Shown here in pieces: positions 175 to 9,797 of a stretch of DNA of 9,797 nucleotides. A program made the translations under genes and the position numbers. Each line of letters opens with the position of its first letter. Position 1 is the stretch's first letter. Origin of the DNA: Leptolyngbya sp. BC1307 (GTDB lineage: Bacteria; Cyanobacteriota; Cyanobacteriia; Phormidesmidales; Phormidesmidaceae); the NCBI RefSeq assembly GCF_002286735.1, contig NZ_NRTA01000085.1:1-9797 (forward strand), written 5' to 3'. Below the pieces are notes generated by a model. It saw only the letters and a program-made list of their open reading frames with translations, did no database searches and was not told the origin of the DNA.

Positions 175-1332
175 ATGCTTCAGCACGCCCAAGGGCTAGT
201 GTATAGCCTAATTTCACTCATGCCTAGTGTCTATCAAAAAGCCAGTCTAAAAGCCGTTTTGGGGCTATTTTTAGATGCGCAAGGCCATGCACTACCGGAA
301 CATACGCAAATCAAGTCAGCGAGTTCGCTCAGTCGGTTTTTTAATCGCTATCGTTGGCCAACCCGGCAAGTGATCCGCACTGCCCGCGCAGCCATCCTAG
401 AACAGCTCGCTACACATCCCGTCCGTAAGGGTGTGCCAGTGCGGCTGCTGATAGATTTAAGCACGCTGAGAAAGACAGGCAAGTTTTGGCATTTGAGCAC
501 GCCAACCGAGGACATCAATGCGCCTGAGCCCTGGGTGCGAATGCTCAATGGCAAGCGTGGACTGCATCTGGTCGTGCTCTATATCGTGATTGGCCAGCGG
601 CGAATACCGTGGAGCTTCCGAGTCTGGCGCGGCAAAGGGCGACCGAGCCCGAATCAATTGGCCTGTAAGCTGTTGGCCAGCGTACCTAAGTCTCTGATAA
701 AAGGCAGAACTGTGATTGTGCAGGCAGACACCGAATTTGGCACCGTAGAATTTCTCGGTGCCGTCCGTCAGCGCAAGTGGCGAGCCGTCGTTGGGGTGAA
801 AAACAGCCGTCTATTACAAGATGGGCGCAAGCTAAAAGACCTTCCAGGCAAGGCAAAACGGGGACTACAGGTTTACCTCAAGGATATCGACTACCCGCTT
901 ACAGTCTCTTGGTTTTGGCTTAAACGAGCGGACAATCAGCGAGAGCTGCGCTTTGTCGCTTCGACCCATCCTTATTCTGGTGTTTACCTCATCCGCTTAG
1001 GCCGCAAACGTTGGGCTATAGAAGGTTTCTTCAAAACCGCTAAGCATCAGTTTGGGCTGCATTGCTTTGGCCAAAGCACCAAAATCGGCGTGTATCGTTG
1101 GCTTGTACTGTCGCTCATTGCTTATCTGCTCGCCCATTGGGTTGACCTCTGGGCTTGGCCACCCGTCTTAGATTGGAAGGCCACCGCTAGGTTAACCCTA
1201 GAAAAACTGCTGCCCTCTGTGCTCTGGTTTCAACTGCTCAGACAAATCAGGCGCAATGTTGATATTGCTGCTCAATTTGGCTTTGAAATCATCATCAAAT
1301 CATTGCCTGATTGGGCTTATCGAGAATGGTGA
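175..1332 (+). CDS. DDE transposase, IS4 superfamily (DDE_Tnp_1-like)
   Basis: 385-aa ORF. Candidate catalytic triad contexts are LLIDLS, VQADTEFG and RWAIEGFFKTAK. The last is the R(3)E(6)K signature of IS4-type transposases. The ORF is bracketed by inverted repeats. Confidence 0.9.
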   Translation: MLQHAQGLVYSLISLMPSVYQKASLKAVLGLFLDAQGHALPEHTQIKSASSLSRFFNRYRWPTRQVIRTARAAILEQLATHPVRKGVPVRLLIDLSTLRKTGKFWHLSTPTEDINAPEPWVRMLNGKRGLHLVVLYIVIGQRRIPWSFRVWRGKGRPSPNQLACKLLASVPKSLIKGRTVIVQADTEFGTVEFLGAVRQRKWRAVVGVKNSRLLQDGRKLKDLPGKAKRGLQVYLKDIDYPLTVSWFWLKRADNQRELRFVASTHPYSGVYLIRLGRKRWAIEGFFKTAKHQFGLHCFGQSTKIGVYRWLVLSLIAYLLAHWVDLWAWPPVLDWKATARLTLEKLLPSVLWFQLLRQIRRNVDIAAQFGFEIIIKSLPDWAYREW

Positions 1333-1389: not shown

Positions 1390-1950
1390 ATGACTCAGCT
1401 CACTACCTTTACACTGCAACCGTTTTCTCCTACTGCCCAAACAACAGATCTCGCTATTAGCGGCTCGCTGGTGAGAAGTCAGTCTGTTCTATCGATTGTT
1501 TATCGGTTTGAGGGAGACTTTGACAAAGTGGTAATTCCGCCAGTGGGTGAGGCGGGCGATCGCCGCGATCAGCTCTGGCAACAAACGTGCTTTGAGTTCT
1601 TTTTAGGTGAAGGCCCCAACAAAGCAGAAACCGACCCTTACTGGGAGTTTAACCTCTCTCCGACAGGCGATTGGAATGTGTTTTCGCTGGCAGGCTATCG
1701 TCAGGGTTTGCGAGAAGAGAGGGCGCTAGGGGCGCTCCCGTTTACCGTTCGTACGGCGCAGACTCAGCTGCAACTGGCGCTAACGGTCGATGTGGGAGAG
1801 CTTGTTGACCCGGCTCAACCGCTGCGATTGGGCGTGAGTGCAGTGGTGGTGCTGGCGAGCGGCGAAGAGACTTTTTGGGCGATCGCTCATCCCGGCCCAA
1901 CGCCTGATTTTCACCATCCTGAGAGTTTTGCGCTTGAGCTACTGCCGTAA
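1390..1950 (+). CDS. Conserved hypothetical protein, possibly DOMON/CBM9-like (function uncertain)
   Basis: 186-aa ORF with two internal HIP1 sites (1556, 1879) and host-like codon usage. The segment WEFNLSPTGDWNVFSLAGYRQG resembles cyanobacterial proteins I recall being annotated as DOMON-like. That is from memory only. Confidence 0.7.
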   Translation: MTQLTTFTLQPFSPTAQTTDLAISGSLVRSQSVLSIVYRFEGDFDKVVIPPVGEAGDRRDQLWQQTCFEFFLGEGPNKAETDPYWEFNLSPTGDWNVFSLAGYRQGLREERALGALPFTVRTAQTQLQLALTVDVGELVDPAQPLRLGVSAVVVLASGEETFWAIAHPGPTPDFHHPESFALELLP

Positions 1951-2330: not shown

Positions 2331-3029
2331 ATGATGAAAACCATTGGGCTGCTCGGTGGCATGAGCTGGGAGTCAACGATTGAGTATTACCGGCTGCTGA
2401 ATGAAACCGTTAAAGCAGAGCTAGGCGGACTGCACTCAGCGAAGATCGTAATGGTTTCGGTCGATTTCGAAGAGATTGTAGCGCTCAAGCATGAGGGCGA
2501 CTGGGACAAAATTGGTCAACTGCTCGCAGCGGCTGCCGCCAAGCTAGAAGGGGCCGGGGCCGACTGTTTGCTGCTGGCGACCAATACCATGCACAAGGTG
2601 GCCGAGGCGATCGCGCTCTCAACTTCTCTACCGCTGATTCACATTGCCGATGCGACGGCTGTAGAAATCAAACAGAGCAGGATTAAGCGAATTGGGTTGC
2701 TGGGTACCCGCTTCACTATGGAAGAGTCTTTTTACAAAGATCGGCTGATCCATCAGCATGGCTTGGCCGTGCAGGTGCCCAATGACGAAGACCGCCGCTT
2801 TGTTCACAATGTCATCTATGACGAGCTTTGCCTGGGTAAAATTCGCCCGGTATCGCGCGATCGCTTTTGTGAAATCATCGCTCGTTTGGTCGCCTCGGGT
2901 GCTGAAGCTGTCGTCTTGGGCTGCACAGAAATCAGCCTGCTGGTTCACCCCGAAGACAGCGTCGTGCCCTTATTTGATACGACGGCTATTCACGCGATCG
3001 CCGCAGCTAAGTGGGCGATCGCGGCCTAG
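2331..3029 (+). CDS. Aspartate/glutamate racemase family protein (YgeA-like)
   Basis: The N-terminus MKTIGLLGGMSWESTIEYYRLLN is typical of the Asp/Glu racemase family. The two half-site motifs are LLATNTMH (Thr in place of the first catalytic Cys, as in YgeA-type members) and VLGCTEISLL. The start may be the second ATG at 2334. Confidence 0.85.
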   Translation: MMKTIGLLGGMSWESTIEYYRLLNETVKAELGGLHSAKIVMVSVDFEEIVALKHEGDWDKIGQLLAAAAAKLEGAGADCLLLATNTMHKVAEAIALSTSLPLIHIADATAVEIKQSRIKRIGLLGTRFTMEESFYKDRLIHQHGLAVQVPNDEDRRFVHNVIYDELCLGKIRPVSRDRFCEIIARLVASGAEAVVLGCTEISLLVHPEDSVVPLFDTTAIHAIAAAKWAIAA

Positions 3030-4158
3030 AGCTGCTTAGCCAACTCTGGGTAACACCGCCAGTAGCCCGACGAAAATCGTTTTCTGGGCGAGTCCAGTTA
3101 TTCGCCGAATTACTGAGATATCTAGCTAGGGATATCTAGATATAAATCGACGTAGATTGCGAACGGCTGCTGTGCAAGCGTCTGTAGGATTAGAAACCTT
3201 AAGGCTATTTCCCCCTTACAAAGAAGTGCAGTAGGCAGCTGTGGAAACAGGCACAGTGATAAAACATCTCGGTATCGCTTCTTTAGAGCGCAAACTGAGG
3301 CGATCGCTCATAAACATTGTCTCTCTCGTTAAGAGATGCCATAAATAGACTTCTCACTTCTGTATAAATACGGATATAGAGAATAGTCTAGCAGGGTGTA
3401 AATACCTGACTGTCAGGCAGTTTCCGGATAGTGACAGCAGGCGAAGAGAATCTATTTTGTAAACCAATAGACACTGCGGCAATGCTTGACTTTACAGAAA
3501 GCGATATTTCAGCTGGCTTTAGCGACCGGGTGTTAGCTGAGCCCGCGAGAGTGAAATTATCACGGCCAATGCGGTTAAGTCACGCTAGGAACGCAGACTT
3601 TCTACATCGGCACTCAGCAGGTCTCTAGCATTAATCAAAACCCCATTATCCGCAGCTTTGACCCCAGCTAAACATGCCAGCCCAAATGCGCCTGAATAGC
3701 CAAGCCGGATAGGTCTGTCGGCAGATGCTTTACGAAAGGGGCAAGCTTAGGATAAAACAGACTCAAATCAGCAGGCAGCAGGCCCTAGTCAAAAGTACGG
3801 TGATTACGGCGGGCAATCACCACTGCTAGAGCGGCTGCTTCTGGCGATGATGTAGTTAGTCAGTAGTCAGTCAAAGGATCGCCGGCAACGGTAGTTCTAA
3901 GCTGATTCTAACCGAGGGCTCAGTATCTCTGTATAGGCTATAGCTTCTCAAGACAGAAAAGACCTTATCACTCCTCCCCTTAAAGTTCAATTCTAATCCA
4001 AGGTATTGAAGTTATGTTAAGATAAACTCATAACGATTTTGAGTTAAGCAAACGTTAAACGGTATTTGACGATAGGTTGGCGGCTTTCGACTGCAGGTTT
4101 TGAAGTGCAGCGCGCATTGGCTACTAGCCCCCCTATTGATTCCTTAGAAATTTTCGGC

Positions 4159-4163
4159 GGAGG
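4159..4163 (+). promoter_or_regulatory. Shine-Dalgarno-like GGAGG upstream of the sigma factor start
   Basis: GGAGG at 4159-4163, with 11 nt to the ATG at 4175. Confidence 0.4.
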
Positions 4164-4174
4164 CCCCAAACACC

Positions 4175-5284
4175 ATGGCTACATCTGAAGCCCGCACCAC
4201 TAAAAAGAGCGCTACCGCACAGGGCGCTGAAGCAAAAGCTAAAGCAGCTAAAACGACTGCCAAGACGGCAGCTACGACGACTAAAACTAAAAAGACAGCC
4301 AAGCGTAAAGCCAAGCCGCTGTACACCACTGACGCAGTGCGTGCCTATCTACATGAGATTGGCCGCGTCCCTCTGCTCAGCCACGAAGATGAGATCGTGC
4401 TGGGTAAGCAGGTACAGCAAATGATGGCGCTGCTAGAGATCAAAGCAGGGCTGGTTGAACAGCTGCCAGAAGACGATGCCTCTGAAAATAATATTTCTCA
4501 GGCAGAGTGGGCGGCCGCCGCTGGCATGAGCGAAGATGAGCTGAGCAATCACATGCGTCGCGGTCAGCGCTCCAAGCACAAAATGATTGAGGCCAATCTG
4601 CGGCTGGTAGTCGCGGTTGCCAAGAAGTACCAAAAGCGCAACCTGGAGTTCTTAGATCTGATTCAAGAAGGCACTCTCGGCTTAGAGCGTGGGGTAGAAA
4701 AGTTTGACCCGATGAAGGGCTATAAGTTCTCTACTTACGCTTACTGGTGGATTCGTCAGGCGATTACGCGGGCGATCGCTCAGCAGGCGCGCACAATTCG
4801 CTTGCCGATTCACATCACCGAAAAGCTCAACAAGATCAAGCGCGTTCAGCGGGAGCTATCGCAGACGTTAGGGCGCAGCCCCAATGCGGCTGAGATTGGT
4901 GAAGAGCTAGAACTAGAGCCCAAACAGGTACGCGAGTATCTTTCGATTGCCCGTCAGCCAATCTCTCTAGATGTGCGCATCGGTGATAACCAGGATACTG
5001 AGCTGCAAGATCTCTTAGAAGATGACGGTGCTTCGCCCGAAGACTACACCGTGCAGCAGTCTCTACGCCAGGACATCTTTAAGATGCTCTCAGAGCTGAC
5101 GCCTCAGCAGCAGGAAGTGATCAACCTGCGGTTTGGCTTAGCCGATGGCAATCCGCTTTCTCTGGCTAAGGTCGGTCAGCGCATGAGCATCAGCCGTGAG
5201 CGCGTCCGTCAGCTAGAGCAGCAGGCGCTGAAGCACTTGCGTCGTCGGAAGGCTTCGATCAACGGTTATTTGGCTGCGAGCTAG
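4175..5284 (+). CDS. RNA polymerase sigma-70 factor, RpoD/SigA family (cyanobacterial group-2-type)
   Basis: Region 1.2: DAVRAYLHEIGRVPLLSHEDEI. Region 2: MIEANLRLVVAVAKKYQKRNLEFLDLIQEGTLGLERGVEKFDPMKGYKFSTYAYWWIRQAITRAI. Region 3: TIRLPIHITEKLNKIKR. Region 4.2: LSLAKVGQRMSISRERVRQLEQQALKHLR. I could not confidently assign SigB, C, D or E subtype. Confidence 0.93.
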   Translation: MATSEARTTKKSATAQGAEAKAKAAKTTAKTAATTTKTKKTAKRKAKPLYTTDAVRAYLHEIGRVPLLSHEDEIVLGKQVQQMMALLEIKAGLVEQLPEDDASENNISQAEWAAAAGMSEDELSNHMRRGQRSKHKMIEANLRLVVAVAKKYQKRNLEFLDLIQEGTLGLERGVEKFDPMKGYKFSTYAYWWIRQAITRAIAQQARTIRLPIHITEKLNKIKRVQRELSQTLGRSPNAAEIGEELELEPKQVREYLSIARQPISLDVRIGDNQDTELQDLLEDDGASPEDYTVQQSLRQDIFKMLSELTPQQQEVINLRFGLADGNPLSLAKVGQRMSISRERVRQLEQQALKHLRRRKASINGYLAAS

Positions 5285-5321
5285 TCACTGGCTAATTCGA
5301 TGAAACATGACTAATTAAAAA

Positions 5322-5360
5322 GTGGACGGTGAGTTGATGATCTTGCCGTCCACTTTTTTT
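5322..5360. terminator. Rho-independent hairpin shared by the convergent sigma and PHP genes (bidirectional)
   Basis: GTGGACGG (5322-5329) pairs with CCGTCCAC (5346-5353) and is followed by T7 (5354-5360). An A-run (5317-5321) precedes the stem and would give a U-tract on the minus-strand transcript. It sits between stop codons at 5284 (+) and 5365 (-). Confidence 0.75.
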
Positions 5361-5364
5361 GCGT

Positions 5365-6201
5365 TTATGAGCGGGTGCTTTTGAGGGCGATCGCTGCCGC
5401 CCGTAAAGGGGGAAGCAGTGTAAGAGGCACTGCCAGATCGTTTAGATCGCGAAAGTCTGGATTTTTTTCTTTTCTGGGGCCGTGGTAGTCGCTGCCGCCA
5501 GTCATCAGCAGGCCGTAAGTTTGGCAGTATTCTTCTAGCTTGCGGGTCTGGCTGGGGCTGTGCGTGGGGTGGTAGACCTCAATGCCCGTCAGCCCGGCTT
5601 CGACCAGCTCTGGCAAAATGGCTTCTACCGTGCCGCCGCGAAAGATGTAAGGATGTGCCCAGACTGAGACCGCGCCGCACTGTGTCAATAGCTCAATGCC
5701 TTCTTGAGCTGTAAATTTTTCGTAGGGGACGTAGGCGGGGCCGTCGTCTTTTAAGAAGCGGTCAAAGGCTTCTCTGTTAGATTTGACGTGGCCTGCTTTT
5801 TTGAGGGCGCTGGCAATGTGAGGGCGGCCGGGTGCCATCAAGCCGGATAGGTCAGGCAGCTCAATTGGGTAGCCCAGTTCGGCAAGCTTTGCGGCCATTT
5901 CGCGGGCGCGGCGTTTGCGGCCTTCGACTCGTTCTTGCAGGGGCGATCGCAGCTTCTCCGCATCCGGGTAAAAGCCCAGAATGTGCATGGATCGGCCATT
6001 GTAAACGGTGCTCAACTCCAAGCCGGGGACGATTTCTAGGTTGAGCAGGGTGGCGGTGGCGATCGCTTCGTCCCAACCGGCCATCGTATCGTGATCAGTA
6101 ATCGCCAGCGCCTTGACGCCTTTTTCTGCTGCGAACTTCACCAGTTCTGCGGGTGTAAGACTGCCATCGGAACAAGTTGTGTGGCTGTGAAGCTCTAGCA
6201 T
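5365..6201 (-). CDS. PHP-domain metal-dependent phosphoesterase (TrpH/YciV-like, COG0613-type)
   Basis: The N-terminal motif LELHSHTTCSDGSLTPAELV, then AITDHDT, and later WAHP and GGSDYHG are the His/Asp metal-binding motifs of PHP phosphoesterases. Confidence 0.85.
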   Translation of the reverse strand: MLELHSHTTCSDGSLTPAELVKFAAEKGVKALAITDHDTMAGWDEAIATATLLNLEIVPGLELSTVYNGRSMHILGFYPDAEKLRSPLQERVEGRKRRAREMAAKLAELGYPIELPDLSGLMAPGRPHIASALKKAGHVKSNREAFDRFLKDDGPAYVPYEKFTAQEGIELLTQCGAVSVWAHPYIFRGGTVEAILPELVEAGLTGIEVYHPTHSPSQTRKLEEYCQTYGLLMTGGSDYHGPRKEKNPDFRDLNDLAVPLTLLPPLRAAAIALKSTRS

Positions 6202-6252
6202 AGGGGCAAGTGTGTTTGAAAAGACTTAGCTTCGTTCAGTATCGCTCGAAAG

Positions 6253-6987
6253 CTATTTTTTGATCTGCTGTGCGAACCAAAGAGCGGCTTTCCCGTTCGA
6301 TTCTTGCGCCGTTTTCTGAATGGTGGCTTCTAGCAAGGTCACGGATAATCCCGTCAGGGCGCTAGAGGCTTCGCAGGTTTGGTAGGTGCCGGTTTCATCC
6401 AGTCGGAAGATGAAAACGCGGCCACCTCTTATGTCGATTACCCAGTATTCTGGGATTTTTAATGAGGCGTAGAGTTTTTTCTTTTCGTCTAAATCTGTGG
6501 CGAGCGTTGTGTCTGAAACTTCGCCGATAAAGTCGGGCACAGGCCACTTGTTTAAATCAACTTGTCGCTGTTCTCCCGGCTCCCATCTTGGATAATTTTC
6601 ACCCAAGTAAACGACGAGGTCGGGAGCGCCTGCCTTGAGCGGTTTTTTCTCTAGTAGGCAACGACCTAACGAGGTAAAGGTTTGGTCGGAGTTTTGTGCA
6701 AACCATGCAAACAGCAGGGCTATAAACAGGTCGCAAATGGCTGCGTGGTTAATGCCTTCCCAACCCATATCAACGACCAAGACTGAGTTTTCATCGAAAA
6801 ATAGTCGCCAGTGCTTTTCATCGAGTTCAAGTTCGTCACGGCGATCACAATACTCTTCCCAAGTAGCGGGTTGCCAGCGGTAAAGTGGGGTTGGCTGTGG
6901 GCTAGGGTCAGAGGGATAAGTGACGCTGAGGGCAGTCATGGGTGGGCGTTTTGATAAGGCCGATGCTTTAAGCGTAGCAAACTTCAA
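6253..6987 (-). CDS. Uma2-family (DUF820) PD-(D/E)XK putative endonuclease
   Basis: Typical Uma2 features are present: PLYRW..WEEY near the N-terminus, APDLVVY, FIGEVSD (the D...E.S core) and KIPEYWVIDIRGGRVFIFRL. The true start may be the internal ATG at 6939 (MTALSV...), giving 228 aa. Confidence 0.85.
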   Translation of the reverse strand: MKFATLKASALSKRPPMTALSVTYPSDPSPQPTPLYRWQPATWEEYCDRRDELELDEKHWRLFFDENSVLVVDMGWEGINHAAICDLFIALLFAWFAQNSDQTFTSLGRCLLEKKPLKAGAPDLVVYLGENYPRWEPGEQRQVDLNKWPVPDFIGEVSDTTLATDLDEKKKLYASLKIPEYWVIDIRGGRVFIFRLDETGTYQTCEASSALTGLSVTLLEATIQKTAQESNGKAALWFAQQIKK

Positions 6988-7010
6988 GTTTATGGAAAGT
7001 TTTTGATGAT

Positions 7011-7041
7011 TTGACCTGTCGTCGGGATGACTCTCTATAAT
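7011..7041 (+). promoter_or_regulatory. Candidate sigma-70 promoter for the 7067 ORF / STAND locus
   Basis: TTGACC (7011-7016), a 19-bp spacer, then consensus TATAAT (7036-7041), 25 nt before the ATG at 7067. The spacer is longer than optimal. Confidence 0.4.
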
Positions 7042-7066
7042 TTGGCTAGTTGCTCTGAGATTCTCT

Positions 7067-7492
7067 ATGGCTGACCCTGTAACGTTTACGGCTAGCGCGA
7101 TCGCGAACCTCGCCTTTCAAGAATTCTTGCAAACGAGCGCTGGCGAGCTGGCAAAGAAGTTTTCGGCAGCGGCCATTGCGAAAATGGGAGAGTTGCGTCA
7201 GATGATATGGAACCGATTGCAGGGTAAGAATGCAACGGCTGAGATAGCTTTGTCACAGGCGGAAAAGGGTTATGAGGGGTCAATTGAGATTGTCTCGACC
7301 TTTTTGAGTGTGGAGATGCTAGATGATGAATTTGCGGAGCAGGTGAGGGCAATCGCCCAGGAAATTCATGCGGGCAAACTGTTAGACCAAAGCAGTATGG
7401 TGCAAAACAACAGCGACAATGCTACTGGCTATCAGGTTAAGAATGAGGGCGGTGAGAACTACATGGGAAATATCACCATCCACAAGACTTGA
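7067..7492 (+). CDS. Small predicted all-alpha protein with an N/Q/G-rich C-terminal tail; candidate effector or adaptor module of the downstream STAND NTPase
   Basis: 141-aa ORF containing one HIP1 site (7097). A hydrophobic/amphipathic N-terminus (MADPVTFTASAIANLAFQEFL) is followed by helix-like heptad-ish segments and the tail QNNSDNATGYQVKNEGGENYMGNITIHKT. It is in the same reading frame as 7493-9277, separated only by TGA. I recognise no enzymatic motif. Confidence 0.65.
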   Translation: MADPVTFTASAIANLAFQEFLQTSAGELAKKFSAAAIAKMGELRQMIWNRLQGKNATAEIALSQAEKGYEGSIEIVSTFLSVEMLDDEFAEQVRAIAQEIHAGKLLDQSSMVQNNSDNATGYQVKNEGGENYMGNITIHKT

Positions 7493-9277
7493 GTGGAGTC
7501 GTCTGACAGAGATCGGACAAAGTTTGCTCGCTCAACCGGAACGCCTCAGAATTTACCACGCAGTGGGGCGGTGACGTTTGTTGGGCGTGAGCAAAAGCTA
7601 AAAGACCTTCATGCGCGGCTTCAGTCAGGGAGCCGCCTTGCGATTACAGCAATTTCTGGGATGGGCGGCATTGGGAAGACGGAACTGGCTTTGCAGTATG
7701 CGATCGCGCAATTCCAGTCAGGCTATTACCCCGGCGGTATTTACTGGCTGCGGGCGAGGGGCCAAGAGATTGCAACGCAAATTACGACCTTTGCGCAAAT
7801 GAACCTGAGGCTGACGCTGCCGGAGGGAGAAATTGACAAGCAGATTCAGCACTGTTGGCAATATTGGCCTGAAGGCGATGTGCTGGTTGTGATTGACGAT
7901 GTAACGGATTATGGGGCGATTAAACCCCACCTACCACCTTCAGATTCTCGGTTCAAGCTGCTAATCACCACGCGCTTGAATTTTGGGCGGAGTGTGGAGA
8001 ATTTTGCGATTGAGGAATTGGATGAAGAGAGTGCCCTGGCGATGGTGGAAGGCATTGTGGCGGATGGACGCATTCAAGCGCAGTTGGCAGATGCGAAGGC
8101 ACTGTGTCAGTGGGTGGGCTGCTTGCCCTTGCGTCTGGAGTTGGTGGGACGGTATCTAGCAGATGATTTGGATTTGTCAGTTCAGGAACTTTTGGCAGAG
8201 TTGGAGGAGACTCGGCTGGATGCTGAGGCACTGCAAGCAGTGGAAGCTGGGATGACGGCTGATCTGGGAGTAATTCAGGCGCTAGAGTTGAGCTGGCGGG
8301 AGCTGAGTGGGCTAGAACGAGATTTGGCCTGTTTGCTGGGGATGTTTGCGGTTGCGCCGATTCCTTGGGCACTGGTAGAAAAGTGTTTGGCTGAAGTAGA
8401 TGCCAAGAATTTGAGGAAGGCAAGGCAGAATGGGTTGTTGCATCGCAGCTTGCTGAAGCGAGTGGGCGACAATCTCTATCAGCTACATCAAATTGTTCAA
8501 GAGTTTTTTCGGGTGAAACTTAATCAACAAATCAAGCAGGGTGACGCTATCAAATCATCGTTTTGTGGTGTACTCGTAGAAGTTGCGCAAAGCATAGAAT
8601 ACAGTCTCACGCTTGCCCAAGCAAATGATGTTAGAGGAGCCATTATTCATTTAGAAGAATTAGCAAATTGCTGGGCTGATAGCCTGAATGACGAAGCATT
8701 GAAAGAGCCATTCACAGGGCTCGGCTATTTTTATAAAGGTCAAGGGATTTATGTCCTAGCATTGTCTTGGTATTTAGATTGCTTGAAACAAACTCAGAAC
8801 AGATTTGGTGAGACTCACCCCGATGTGGCCGCTAGCATGGATAATTTGGCCAACCTTTATAGCGTCCAAGGCAAATATAGAGCAGCAGAGCCAATGCATG
8901 TAAAAGCGTTAGCAATGAGAAAGCAGTTGTTAGGTGAGACTCATCCCTCTGCAGCAACTAGCTTGAATAACTTAGCCAATCTCTACTACCACCAAGGCAA
9001 GTATGCAGCGGCAGAACTACTGTATGTAGAAGCATTAGCGATGTGTAAGCAGTTGTTAGGTAGGGCACATCCTAATGTAGTCACCAGCCTGAATAACTTA
9101 GCCCATCTCTACAATGTTCAAGGCAAATATGAGGCGGCGGAACCGCTGTATACACAAGCGTTGGCGATAGGTGAACAGTTGTTAGGCGAGGCCCATCCCT
9201 CTATGGCCACCAGCCGATGCAATCTTGGTGTTTTATATCACGAGCAAGAAAGTTACTACTTGAGTGTTGTGCTCTGA
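7493..9277 (+). CDS. NB-ARC (AP-ATPase) STAND NTPase with C-terminal kinesin-light-chain-type TPR repeats; the N-terminus depends on a GTG start or TGA read-through, and the C-terminus appears truncated by an IS insertion
   Basis: Motifs: FVGRE..L lead-in, Walker A GMGGIGKT (7658-7681), Walker B VLVVIDD (7880-7900), LLITTR, and the GLPL-type motif GCLPL (8117-8131). These are followed by 42-aa repeats of the form HP..A.S.NNLA.LY..QGKY..AEPLY..ALA....LG. There is no in-frame ATG before the Walker A. The last repeat breaks at LYHEQ|ESYYLSVVL*. Confidence 0.85.
   Translation: MESSDRDRTKFARSTGTPQNLPRSGAVTFVGREQKLKDLHARLQSGSRLAITAISGMGGIGKTELALQYAIAQFQSGYYPGGIYWLRARGQEIATQITTFAQMNLRLTLPEGEIDKQIQHCWQYWPEGDVLVVIDDVTDYGAIKPHLPPSDSRFKLLITTRLNFGRSVENFAIEELDEESALAMVEGIVADGRIQAQLADAKALCQWVGCLPLRLELVGRYLADDLDLSVQELLAELEETRLDAEALQAVEAGMTADLGVIQALELSWRELSGLERDLACLLGMFAVAPIPWALVEKCLAEVDAKNLRKARQNGLLHRSLLKRVGDNLYQLHQIVQEFFRVKLNQQIKQGDAIKSSFCGVLVEVAQSIEYSLTLAQANDVRGAIIHLEELANCWADSLNDEALKEPFTGLGYFYKGQGIYVLALSWYLDCLKQTQNRFGETHPDVAASMDNLANLYSVQGKYRAAEPMHVKALAMRKQLLGETHPSAATSLNNLANLYYHQGKYAAAELLYVEALAMCKQLLGRAHPNVVTSLNNLAHLYNVQGKYEAAEPLYTQALAIGEQLLGEAHPSMATSRCNLGVLYHEQESYYLSVVL
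8807..9248 (+). repeat. Tandem 126-bp (42-codon) TPR-encoding repeats: three full units plus a half unit
   Basis: Units start at 8807, 8933, 9059 and 9185 (GGTGAGACTCA..., GGTGAGACTCA..., GGTAGGGCACA..., GGCGAGGCCCA...) with an exact 126-nt period. DNA identity is roughly three quarters by eye. A more degenerate unit precedes them (~8690-8806). Confidence 0.85.
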
Positions 9278-9797
9278 CGGTAGAAAAATAATTGAGGCGT
9301 TATCTAGCGAGTCATGCAGGCACCCCCTTATTCTGCTTGTCAAACAATTTGGCAAACACCTGCGACGCCGATTCACCCTGTTCAAGACAGTCATGAGCAA
9401 AGAGGATTAGCTTTTCTATCAGCGCTTGCGATTGCTGGCGACAGACCTGCCCGATGGATTGTGTGAGCTGGGTAGGGCGCTTGCCCGGAGCCTTTGTCGG
9501 GGGTGGCAAGCAAGCCAAGTGCAAGATTGAGTAAGCCACGAACACCAACGTCCAATGGGTTTGAATGGATTCAAAGGTTCGCATCCGATACTCATCAAGC
9601 CCGAGATATTGCTTTCCATCTCGATAAAAGGTTTCTATCGGCCATCTTTGTAAATATTTGGCGAGCACCTGTTTGGCTGACCAGTCAGCGCGATTGGTCA
9701 GCAGCACAGCGTAAGTCCCGGTGAGCTGTGCAGTTTCAAAGCTAATCACTAAACGCAGCTTGCCAAAGCGGGGAATTCGGCAGCAGAAGGTAAAACA
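9249..9797 (-). mobile_element. Partial second insertion sequence (IS4/IS701-like) that runs off the window; its near end abuts the broken TPR repeat
   Basis: The TPR periodicity and consensus end abruptly after 9248 (expected ...CAAGGCAAATAT, observed ...CAAGAAAGTTAC). A transposase ORF on the minus strand starts 63 bp further on. The terminal repeat cannot be verified because the other end is outside the window. Confidence 0.55.
9312..9797 (-). CDS. DDE transposase, IS4/IS701-like, C-terminal part (5' end lies beyond the window)
   Basis: The frame is open from the window edge (...CFTFCCRIPRFGKLRLVISFETAQL...), so the GTG at 9749 is probably not the real start. It contains a full Y(2)R(3)E(6)K signature: YLQRWPIETFYRDGK. 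The stop codon is at 9312-9314. Confidence 0.85.
   Translation of the reverse strand, partial: CFTFCCRIPRFGKLRLVISFETAQLTGTYAVLLTNRADWSAKQVLAKYLQRWPIETFYRDGKQYLGLDEYRMRTFESIQTHWTLVFVAYSILHLACLPPPTKAPGKRPTQLTQSIGQVCRQQSQALIEKLILFAHDCLEQGESASQVFAKLFDKQNKGVPA

Follow-up and report, generated by a model that had tools for sequence, protein, structure and literature searches.

Bell/BASS-NLR gene pairs of filamentous bacteria were described by Dyrka et al. 2020 (10.1101/2020.01.06.895854). Their hallmark is a single motif of ~25 aa shared by two neighbors, a small effector that has it at the C-terminus and an NLR that has it at the N-terminus, and the screen that found them required the motif on both proteins. 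The Bell effector was defined there as a protein of 120-140 aa with an all-helical N-terminal bundle of ~100 aa; stop codons, readthrough or in-frame arrangements are not mentioned in that study. An amyloid-signaling abortive-infection system with experimental support, Bab/Agp, has been reported from E. coli (Ibarlosa et al. 2024, 10.1101/2024.11.07.622273).

Here we analyze a locus within a 9797-nt stretch of DNA from Leptolyngbya sp. BC1307 (the window). We consider it very probable that the locus is a Bell/BASS-NLR module for regulated cell death. This kind of system is already known; the single-motif architecture found here was previously undescribed. An initial annotation of the window had proposed a conflict or cell-death module of an architecture poorly characterized in cyanobacteria. 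Homology backs the first part of this proposal, a STAND NTPase controlling a small non-enzymatic helical effector, but the second part has to be given up, the Bell/BASS-NLR system having been described in 2020 (10.1101/2020.01.06.895854).

Organization and setting of the locus

The locus consists of two open reading frames, ORF A and ORF B, that share one frame and are separated solely by a TGA codon (Table 1). The coordinates and the frame of this arrangement, a 141-aa ORF ahead of an NB-ARC/TPR ORF, are as first annotated, but the shared frame had been taken as incidental, whereas no other feature of the locus is as unusual or as conserved. A strict consensus promoter scan found none upstream of ORF A. 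On inspection we noticed a candidate operon promoter, missed by the strict scan because its spacer is 19 nt; its TATAAT and flanks are conserved upstream of the orthologs in L004, L005 and L006. The surroundings, which had been suggested to fit accessory DNA, are as first described: a Uma2 gene is the upstream neighbor, two IS transposase genes are present, and the final HIP1 site of the window begins at 7700, which agrees with the reported lack of HIP1 sites past 7707.

Table 1. Features of the window, with coordinates, strand and basis of assignment
Feature	Coordinates	Strand	Basis or remark
IS transposase gene	175-1332		
Uma2 gene	6253-6987	-	
Candidate operon promoter (TTGACC, 19-nt spacer, TATAAT)	7011-7041	+	Tentative, from sequence inspection
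ORF A	7067-7492	+	141 aa; ATG start, TGA stop
Bell-like helical domain, effector residues 1-105	7067-7381	+	AlphaFold2, N-terminus, dN/dS
C-terminal N/Q/G-rich tail, putative BASS-type amyloid-signaling motif, core MVQNNSDNATGYQVKNEGGENYMGNITI	7382-7489	+	Disorder, dN/dS, homology
In-frame TGA at effector/NLR junction, candidate readthrough site	7490-7492	+	TGA preference
Nucleotide-conserved post-stop element	7493-7522	+	Consensus, synonymous conservation, possible hairpin
Possible hairpin (8-nt spacer after stop)	core stem 7501-7506/7513-7518, outer pair 7499-7520	+	RNAalifold
Linker and conserved TPQNLPRSG motif preceding FVGR	7493-7576	+	Translated, by pN/pS; no conserved start codon
ORF B	7493-9277	+	NB-ARC and TPR; 594 aa counted from GTG
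NB-ARC NTPase domain	7589-8164	+	Pfam PF00931, ORF B residues 33-224
Walker A, GMGGIGKT	7658-7681	+	
Walker B, VLVVIDD	7880-7900	+	
Truncated array of TPR sensor repeats (42 aa each, three to four copies)	8828-9248	+	Pfam TPR_10, TPR_12, TPR_NPHP3
Foreign sequence and IS transposase fragment, to contig end, in place of NLR C-terminal cap	9249-9797	-	
IS transposase gene	9312-9749	-	Pfam DDE_Tnp_1; fragment

ORF A encodes a probable Bell-like effector

By sequence comparison ORF A is a conserved stand-alone gene and no chance ORF: we found 427 homologs at E <= 0.01, mostly of 140-150 aa, which form 269 clusters at 50% identity. The initial annotation had proposed tabulating how often such homologs lie beside NB-ARC genes; in 95 of the 125 informative homologous loci one lies directly downstream, with its NB-ARC P-loop within 1.5 kb on the same strand. 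The AlphaFold2 model of ORF A has six helices within residues 9-102 (pLDDT ~88) and a disordered tail at residues 107-141 (pLDDT <50), which matches the outline first given for this protein, namely a hydrophobic N-terminal helix, a helical middle and an N/Q/G tail. Pfam gave no match to ORF A and PADLOC nothing meaningful (one match at E = 0.038). A Foldseek search of the model against PDB returned nothing at E < 1, and a PDB sequence profile search returned nothing credible, only a spurious TAL-effector match; neither profile nor fold searches thus confirmed that the protein belongs to the Bell family.

The size of the 141-aa product, a short protein with an all-helical bundle of ~100 aa, is that of a Bell protein. 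Its N-terminus, MADPVTFTASAIANLAF, fits the 'MEPIS'-type N-terminus of Bell/Hell. The Bell-type N-terminus of the small protein can be written as M-x-[DE]-P-[IV], after which comes a hydrophobic helix; the window reads MADPVTFTASAIANLAFQEF, in which position 2-3 is acidic and the N-terminal helix hydrophobic (read by eye rather than with a profile), and homologs begin with MEPVS (P0075), MPEPI or MTDPI. The Bell-like domain has dN/dS of 0.09-0.24. The tail shows the tightest constraint in the locus, with dN/dS of 0.00-0.11 at dS of 0.3-1.6.

The N/Q/G composition of the tail had been correctly observed at the outset, while its putative role as a signaling motif went unrecognized. That composition, together with predicted disorder, purifying selection and homology, points to an amyloid-signaling-type motif. 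The homology is to effector tails whose motif recurs N-terminally in the neighboring NLR in loci that we call type I (tail motif on both effector and NLR; n = 65 non-redundant loci). In the type I locus L001, for example, an overlapping 1060-aa NB-ARC/TPR gene has MTQTNSDEVRAFQTAVSGGTVQIGGQY at its N-terminus, a counterpart of the ortholog's tail ...MVQNNSDNARGWQTKVEGGTAYIGEIHI. The local score of the tail against the NLR N-terminus is 40-124 in the 65 type I loci, 14-28 in the type II loci described below and 21 in the window. The tail of the window is by sequence homologous to a BASS, yet the locus is no canonical BASS pair: L001 has the motif on both proteins, whereas the window does not.

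Type II loci have the NLR in frame behind the effector stop

A second architecture, type II, occurs in ~20 loci of Leptolyngbya, Phormidesmis, Pseudanabaena and Acaryochloris, including the window. Our type II set comprises 19 non-redundant loci, plus L023, L157 and L158. Type II NLRs lack the tail motif and begin exactly at the stop codon of the effector. The NLR is in frame with the effector, with no further stop, in 18 of the 19; the distance from the stop to Walker A ranges from 153 to 225 nt and is always a multiple of three, as are all indels in the linker. The layout persists among lineages whose effector identity falls to ~40%, and it is found on pREB4 and pREB5, completely sequenced plasmids of Acaryochloris marina MBIC11017.

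The stop is TGA in 17 of the 19 non-redundant type II loci vs 14 of the 65 type I loci (Fisher p = 1e-7), although the type II counts are not independent because the loci share descent. TAG occupies the position in L074, and TAA replaces TGA in L007, which has an effector 95% identical to that of the window and an intact 780-aa NLR frame. The codon that follows the stop (codon +1) specifies Leu, Val or Met: it is CTA in eight, GTG in six (among them the window) and CTG in five of the 19 loci, GTG in L158 and ATG in L157. In three loci (L014, L031 and L072) the stretch from the stop to Walker A is devoid of in-frame ATG, GTG and TTG codons, and the first ATG of L023 is the M of GMGGIGKT. Codon 17 varies among loci (ATT, ACG, ATA or TTA), and no other start codon is conserved. 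Gene callers place the NLR starts inconsistently; PGAP used the GTG of codon 27 for the window NLR, giving 568 aa, and RefSeq resorted to an ATT start in Acaryochloris marina. In the in-frame type I NLRs without an intervening stop, an ATG is always found no more than 14 codons away from the stop.

The junction also occurs with other partners. In L157 a TIR-BASS effector precedes it, and P0153 and P0163 are true fusions without a stop. The closest NLR relatives, P0318 and P0319, have an N-terminal TIR fused at the same point, and an NLR of this clade with nothing before NLPRSG would therefore lack an output module. No sense codon was seen at the stop position among the best 120 matches to a 488-aa composite query, none of which had full coverage, and the matches to a 107-aa junction peptide were all either short fragments or N-termini of type I.

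A conserved nucleotide element follows the stop

The consensus across the junction is TGA STR NAS TCG TCT GAN ... CGG ACA AAG. Identity at the third codon position is 1.00 at codons +3, +9 and +10, vs 0.26-0.47 at conserved residues nearby, and conservation at synonymous sites spans ~30 nt past the stop. When L001-L154 and the window were scanned for the element, all 20 of the 20 matches lay directly behind a stop codon. RNAalifold predicts a post-stop stem; its 7-pair helix is 85.7% paired, vs 25-52% with the partners slid. Covariation is seen at one pair (UA 14, CG 2, AU 1) and rests on three sequences. The short hairpin (-6.7 kcal/mol, z-score -0.3) is no more stable than shuffled sequence, and a pseudoknot stem is good in one subclade only and weak in the window's own clade. 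We considered whether the hairpin loop holds an internal Shine-Dalgarno sequence for a downstream start and rejected this, there being no start codon at a suitable distance.

The NLR is under selection and is truncated in the window

Pfam NB-ARC (PF00931) matches ORF B at 45.1 bits vs a cut-off of 23.5, and the four motifs by which the domain had originally been recognized (GMGGIGKT, VLVVIDD, LLITTR and GCLPL) are all there. The TPR assignment of the C-terminus likewise holds, with matches to TPR_10 (E = 9e-44) and TPR_12 (E = 4e-38). ORF B matched none of the PADLOC defense models, Avs and bNACHT included, beyond a generic TPR one (5e-9). Purifying selection acts on the NLR, with dN/dS of ~0.14. 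In comparisons among four loci that all have the stop (L004, L005, L006 and the window), NB-ARC dN/dS is 0.12-0.17 at dS of 0.65-0.85; for linker codons 17-28 of close pairs pS is 0.34 and pN 0.05, a ratio of 0.14. The combination expected of readthrough, i.e. two ORFs in the same frame, a single stop, a downstream ORF without a start of its own, and purifying selection, is found in the type II loci.

Nucleotide homology between the window NLR and the other loci breaks off at ~9248, and ORF B ends, for its final ~9 codons and its stop, in foreign sequence beside the IS; the natural C-terminal ~45 aa of the window NLR are therefore missing. The intact NLR C-terminus is present in L005 and L001. 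With its sensor cap lost to the IS, the window copy may be inactive. A transposase gene likewise adjoins the TPR array in the closest loci, L004 and L006. The initial annotation had overlooked this IS truncation, as well as the lack of a partner motif on the NLR and the conservation of the same-frame layout across many cyanobacteria.

How the NLR may be expressed

The NLR has neither the tail motif nor a start codon of its own and lies in frame behind a conserved TGA, and it is therefore probably a readthrough product; on these sequence features we rate expression by readthrough of the TGA as somewhat better than an even bet. Points that weigh against it are the TAA of L007, the weak hairpin, the IS truncation of the window NLR and the lack of a sense-codon variant among the best 120 matches. 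A rather unlikely alternative is translational coupling, in which ribosomes would terminate on the TGA and start again on the very next codon, GTG in the window, to make a separate NLR without an N-terminal module. The element would then tune the coupling, and the NLR would activate the Bell-BASS effector through a contact that involves no shared amyloid motif. Bacterial genes often have stop and start codons side by side, no intrinsic terminator lies between ORF A and ORF B, and reinitiation at codon +1 would account for the shared frame too. Termination-reinitiation is possible in about one third of the loci because codon +1 is GTG or ATG there, but at the others this codon is CTG or CTA, and CTA is not a start codon. 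The restriction of codon +1 to Leu, Val or Met resembles a decoded sense position, no start codon is conserved elsewhere (codon 17 being variable), and coupling offers no reason for the strong preference for TGA. A coupled NLR would moreover be left without effector or adaptor, at the very point where its closest relatives have a TIR or a BASS motif.

A possible objection to any functional reading is that an ancestral all-in-one Bell-BASS-NLR gene was hit by a nonsense mutation, so that the NLR is an untranslated remnant and the small protein alone is functional. The existence of the true fusions P0153 and P0163, the frameshifts in L010 and the transposase that adjoins the TPR array in the window, L004 and L006 could be read in this way. 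We nevertheless hold such decay to be improbable, given the NB-ARC dN/dS of four loci that all have the stop, the linker pN/pS of 0.14, the linker indels in multiples of three, and the persistence of the layout in lineages with only ~40% identity between effectors and, in one completely sequenced isolate, on two plasmids; for the family, a nonsense-mutation pseudogene is contradicted by the selection analysis of NB-ARC (dN/dS) and linker (pN/pS). That the TGA is a site for selenocysteine or an opal-suppressor tRNA, with the hairpin as a bacterial SECIS-like element, is more improbable still. An in-frame UGA followed within ~10 nt by a conserved stem-loop inside coding sequence is what such a site would look like, but the stem has only 5-7 pairs, Rfam gave chance-level matches and none SECIS-like on 7300-7800, TAA and TAG are found at the site in L007 and L074, no ortholog has Cys there, and a scan of 19 loci for a suppressor tRNA found no tRNA gene. 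To our knowledge cyanobacteria generally lack the machinery for decoding Sec. Frameshifting or ribosome hopping was also considered and rejected on inspection; it is needless because the frame is unchanged, and there are no matching take-off and landing codons.

A proposed readthrough-made sensor

In the readthrough reading a single transcript would bear both the effector ORF and the NB-ARC/TPR sensor ORF. Most ribosomes would halt at the TGA and release the 141-aa effector, while a minority would pass it and make a fusion of the form Bell-BASS-linker-NB-ARC-TPR; such readthrough may be stimulated by the conserved element 8 nt beyond the stop and by the TGA-G/C context. Binding of a trigger by the TPR arm would cause the NB-ARC domains to oligomerize, which would cluster the N-terminal tails into an amyloid fold, and this fold would template free effector molecules. 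In the templated effector the Bell domain may then free its N-terminal hydrophobic helix to damage the membrane. The role of the module is probably anti-phage. Readthrough, amyloid templating, membrane attack and the defense role are what we infer, and we incline modestly to the reading as a whole: a Bell/BASS-NLR module of an undescribed 'single-motif' architecture, with TGA readthrough and templated membrane attack. We give an even chance to the corresponding generalization, a family of cyanobacterial NLR loci in which programmed UGA readthrough and a conserved post-stop RNA element would yield two products of a single frame, a free death effector (Bell-BASS or TIR-BASS) in abundance and an effector-BASS-NLR sensor in small amounts, with one motif as both seed and substrate and the ratio set by recoding efficiency.

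Programmed stop-codon readthrough is, as far as we know, very rare in cellular bacterial genes, and we found no report of it for NLR or amyloid-signaling systems in the searchable literature. If true, it would represent a new coupling of sensor to executioner, with one motif serving as seed and substrate and the stoichiometry fixed by the ribosome. It would also account for the arbitrary NLR starts in annotations (the GTG of codon 27 in the window, the ATT in Acaryochloris and, elsewhere, an ATG within the P-loop), and a recoding signal that functions in cyanobacteria, compact and open to testing, would become available. The idea is directly testable because the layout sits on pREB4 and pREB5 of Acaryochloris marina MBIC11017. 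Even without readthrough, about one fifth of the loci in this effector family break the two-motif rule of BASS signaling.

Comparison with known systems

Programmed readthrough is exemplified by the UGA of phage Q-beta coat/A1 and by the UAG of MuLV gag-pol, which has a pseudoknot 8 nt downstream. Our locus resembles these cases in having two in-frame ORFs, one stop of the leaky type and a conserved element ~8 nt on, and here too the short product would be abundant and the long one rare. It differs in being a bacterial immune locus of chromosome or plasmid and no virus, with a short element of weakly supported structure and with readthrough predicted from sequence.

Fungal HET-S/NWD2, the all-in-one HeLo-NLRs and the plant CC-NLR resistosomes share a common logic with the reading proposed for our locus: an oligomerizing STAND NTPase activates a helical domain that is N-terminal and targets membranes, and does so by direct fusion or via prion-like templating; there is no detectable sequence homology between any of them and the locus. 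Unlike these systems, the locus would, if readthrough occurs, make both an all-in-one protein and free effector out of a single pair of ORFs. Such a common source is described neither by Dyrka et al. 2020 (10.1101/2020.01.06.895854) nor by Ibarlosa et al. 2024 (10.1101/2024.11.07.622273).

The locus is like Bab/Agp in its small helical protein, a putative death effector whose N-terminal helix is conserved and whose C-terminus has a putative amyloid motif, and in the adjacent gene for a TPR-bearing sensor, which activates the effector in Bab/Agp and would do so here. The Bab/Agp sensor, however, is a TPR-GreA/B-PIN protein with an N-terminal BASS11 and no NB-ARC, its effector domain is shorter (~80 aa), and the two are ordinary separate genes; our effector matched no PDB entry by sequence or by fold.

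The closest likeness is to the Bell proteins and pairs of Dyrka et al. 2020. The effector agrees with theirs in its ~140 aa, helical domain of ~100 aa, hydrophobic N-terminal helix, acidic residue at 2-3 and C-terminal N/Q/G motif of ~25 aa. The host is a filamentous cyanobacterium, and the effector gene lies directly upstream of, and collinear with, one for an NB-ARC/TPR protein; the motif pair itself is seen in orthologous loci. Unlike the NLRs of those pairs, the NLR of the window and ~20 related ones have neither the motif nor a start of their own, and instead stand in frame behind a conserved TGA and its nucleotide element.

Effector gene, sensor gene and their surroundings

Features of the window and of homologous loci (handles beginning with L)
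Locus	Feature	Position	Strand	Remark
Window	IS4-like DDE transposase	175-1332		385 aa; left contig end
Window	186-aa ORF	1390-1950		adjoins the IS4-like transposase
Window	sigma-70 factor	4175-5284
Window	PHP-domain protein	5365-6201	-
Window	Uma2-family gene	6253-6987	-	upstream neighbour of ORF A
Window	ORF A (effector)	7067-7492	+	141 aa; TGA stop
Window	ORF B (NLR-like sensor)	7493-9277	+	first codon GTG at 7493, directly after the ORF A stop, same frame
Window	predicted stem core	7501-7506 with 7513-7518		8 nt past the stop
Window	foreign sequence with transposase fragment	9249-9797		up to contig end
L004	transposase gene	8224-9591
L006	transposase gene	6834-7790
L023	effector and NLR, plasmid pREB4	1829-2257 (effector); NLR to 4537
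L023	318-aa Bell/BASS-type protein	5001-5957
L074	distant Bell-like/BASS gene and NLR	847-1500 (approx.)
L157	TIR-BASS protein and NLR	871-1905

The window takes in an entire 9797-bp contig of Leptolyngbya sp. BC1307. ORF B encodes an NB-ARC domain (45.1 bits, Pfam) with GMGGIGKT and VLVVIDD motifs, followed by TPR_10/TPR_12 repeats. ORF A has no Pfam match and no PADLOC match of any meaning. A sequence search found 427 ORF A homologues (269 clusters at 50% identity), almost all of them cyanobacterial; because they are nearly all stand-alone proteins of 140-150 aa, the effector stop after ~141 codons is ancestral rather than a recent nonsense mutation. ORF A is thus a genuine gene, conserved in its own right, and of the Bell/BASS kind, combining a small helical domain with a putative death-effector role (Bell) with a C-terminal N/Q/G-rich bacterial amyloid signalling sequence (BASS). 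The structure prediction that the initial annotation had called for (AlphaFold2, 38-sequence alignment) agrees with its helical reading, giving a six-helix bundle over residues 9-102 (pLDDT ~88) and a disordered tail over 107-141. The effector begins with M-x-[DE]-P-[IV] (MADPV in the window, MEPVS in homologue P0075) and continues into a hydrophobic helix; this region has been described as conserved in Bell and Hell domains (Dyrka 2020). In contig L001 the orthologue tail MVQNNSDNARGWQTKVEGGTAYIGEIHI is repeated as MTQTNSDEVRAFQTAVSGGTVQIGGQY near the N-terminus of an overlapping 1060-aa NB-ARC/TPR gene; such a short motif, common to effector C-terminus and NLR N-terminus, defines bacterial amyloid signalling sequences. 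Fold and profile searches of ORF A against the PDB gave no homology to a solved Bell-like structure, and its Bell membership thus rests on architecture, on the motif at its N-terminus and on genomic context. Bell, BASS and NB-ARC also occur truly fused, with no stop between them (P0153, P0163). The 318-aa protein of L023 has a Bell domain and BASS-type motif, then ~170 extra C-terminal aa, with no NB-ARC gene downstream.

The neighbours named in the initial annotation are borne out: the Uma2 gene, transposase genes of IS elements at either end of the contig, and a last HIP1 site at 7700. The window (2331-6987) has synteny in common with the closely related loci L004 and L005, in the order sigma-70 factor, PHP-domain protein, effector/NLR; just upstream of the effector the relatives carry a nucleotidyltransferase (plus HEPN in L004) whereas the window carries the Uma2-family gene. 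The effector gene, TGA junction and NB-ARC domain of the window copy are intact. Its TPR homology stops at ~9248, and the natural NLR C-terminus, present in L005 (...HPWTQGIENSLNSLPPNE) and L001, is absent, so the sensor may be disabled. In the window, L004 and L006, three of the four closest loci, the TPR array runs directly up against a transposase gene at its 3' end, at differing positions; TPR arrays may be recurrent IS targets, or else assembly break points.

Two architectures downstream of the effector stop

We analysed the sequence 3' of each effector stop across 155 loci: 148 with ORF A relatives from genomes and metagenomes, six contigs (L001-L006) from exact protein look-up, and the window. 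The association with NB-ARC genes, which the initial annotation had proposed to tabulate, was found in 95 of 125 informative loci (P-loop within 1.5 kb downstream, same strand). Thirty loci (e.g. L015, L037, L050, L128) have an effector with a typical GWQTKVEGGTAYIGEIHI tail and 700 nt or more of sequence behind it, with no same-strand NB-ARC P-loop within 1.5 kb; in L002 an NB-ARC P-loop lies ~2.5 kb from the effector on the opposite strand.

Type I NLRs (65 non-redundant loci) have an N-terminal extension of ~80-150 aa containing a copy of the effector tail motif (local score of tail against NLR N-terminus 40-124). Relative to the effector their frame is near random, with 27 in frame and 38 out of frame (p = 0.10 against one third), and those in frame without an intervening stop all have an ATG 1-14 codons past the effector stop. 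Type II NLRs (19 non-redundant loci, window included) lack the motif (score 14-28). Walker A lies 153-225 nt past the stop, always at a multiple of 3, and in 18 of the 19 the NLR continues the effector frame without another stop; L010, the remaining locus, carries several frameshifts. TGA serves as the stop in 17 of 19 type II loci, as against TAG 35, TAA 16 and TGA 14 in type I (Fisher p = 1e-7), and the in-frame excess over type I has p = 4e-5, counts in both comparisons being phylogenetically non-independent. Codon +1, the first after the stop, is CTA in eight type II loci, GTG in six and CTG in five. Type II hosts are Leptolyngbya and Phormidesmis relatives, Pseudanabaena, Synechococcales MAGs and Acaryochloris marina MBIC11017, where the loci lie on conjugative plasmids (L072/L155 on pREB5, L023 on pREB4); the plasmids of this strain are completely sequenced.

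Type II effectors are ~40-100% identical, with synonymous sites saturated between clades. Among the four closest loci (window, L004, L005, L006; TGA in all), dN/dS was 0.12-0.17 for NB-ARC (dS 0.65-0.85), 0.12-0.21 for TPR and 0.00-0.11 for the effector tail (dS 0.3-1.6). Codons 17-28 past the stop ([IT]PxNLPRSG...) show pS 0.34 versus pN 0.05 in close pairs, with eight synonymous and no non-synonymous changes between L014 and L026, and indels within the first 12 codons are of 3 nt, in frame. In L014, L031 and L072 there is no in-frame ATG, GTG or TTG between effector stop and Walker A, and the earliest ATG of L023 codes for the M of GMGGIGKT, inside the P-loop. Annotated starts vary: RefSeq uses an ATT codon 48 nt past the effector stop for A. 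marina NLRs (WP_071820028, WP_071820034), PGAP places the start of the window NLR on codon 27, a GTG (568 aa), cutting the conserved NLPRSG motif, and other gene callers chose MESSD, MPRSG, MGGIGKT or MAITAISG. These patterns argue for a functional type II NLR that is translated all the way from the stop.

In the closest NLR relatives there is either a BASS extension or, joined on exactly at the junction point, an N-terminal TIR (P0318 and P0319, ...RTQRTVRTPQNLPRSG), so a type II NLR starting after the stop would be without an output module. Effector modules appear, from these sequences, to be swapped at one fixed NLR junction. P0318 and P0319 are all-in-one TIR-NB-ARC-TPR proteins, 72-74% identical to the window NLR and joined at the ...RT..TPQNLPRSG point. 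P0145 (617 aa) has Bell and a BASS-type motif, with further sequence ending, by eye, in a TIR-like FFSYSHKDE segment.

A conserved element behind the stop

Every type II junction reads TGA-STR-NAS-TCG-TCT-GAN-(6-9 nt)-CGG-ACA-AAG, despite widely different effector tails before it. Identity at the third position reaches 1.00 in codons +3, +9 and +10, as against 0.26-0.47 in invariant Pro and Asn codons close by, and a regular expression for the element had 20 matches on both strands of L001-L154 and the window, each directly behind a stop codon. This nucleotide conservation is solid; an RNA structure is proposed tentatively. RNAalifold predicts a stem after the stop, its 7-pair helix 85.7% paired versus 25-52% in slid controls, with one covarying pair (UA 14, CG 2, AU 1), and residue changes from Ser to Pro, Leu or Ile preserve base pairing. 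The hairpin alone is thermodynamically ordinary (-6.7 kcal/mol, z = -0.3). The second stem of a candidate H-type pseudoknot, between a purine-rich loop and a CUCC-type tract ~9 nt downstream, is built from several pair types; it pairs well in Pseudanabaena and Acaryochloris-type loci and weakly in the window's own clade.

L157 encodes a TIR-domain protein of 209 aa that ends in a BASS-like tail (...GFQINVSGGTVNISPPTQQPD); behind it come TGA ATG GAG TCG TCC GAA ... CGG ACA AAG, the type II element, and then an NB-ARC N-terminus, with the NLR disrupted past Walker A in the sampled contig. Bell effectors are therefore not alone in having this junction, which behaves as a module linking an effector ORF with a BASS end to an NLR. 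In L074 a TAG stop is directly followed by a perfect 7-bp hairpin (CUGGAGG/CCUCCAG) and an in-frame NLR of another, unrelated family, which may be an independent instance of the same stop-plus-hairpin design.

Expression of the type II sensor

The simplest model covering all type II loci, and one we favour by a modest measure, is that the NLR is expressed by programmed UGA readthrough. This would account for an NLR lacking both motif and start codon, the sense-like L/V/M codon past the stop, the preference for TGA with C or G next, and the post-stop element together with purifying selection on the linker. Of the stop contexts known in E. coli, UGA-C is the leakiest. Counting against readthrough are L007, with a TAA stop and an intact NLR frame, and the finding of no sense-codon variant at the stop position among the best 120 matches to a composite query.

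The main rival, termination followed by reinitiation at codon +1, would be viable in GTG and ATG loci, the window among them, but not in CTA loci, and we consider it rather improbable. That type II NLRs are decayed pseudogene remnants is unlikely given the purifying selection on NB-ARC and the scarcity of non-synonymous change in codons 17-28, and selenocysteine decoding of the TGA is unlikely also.

The Bell/BASS-NLR module itself has been described (Dyrka 2020); that study makes no mention of a single-motif, in-frame-stop architecture with a conserved junction, and we found no report of this architecture in the literature searched. The design would be of high interest if readthrough proved true by experiment. 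Readthrough would give free effector for the most part, plus a little effector-BASS-NLR, and NLR oligomerisation would then cluster the single motif, which would template the free effector, a scheme modelled on HET-S/NWD2 and Bab/Agp.
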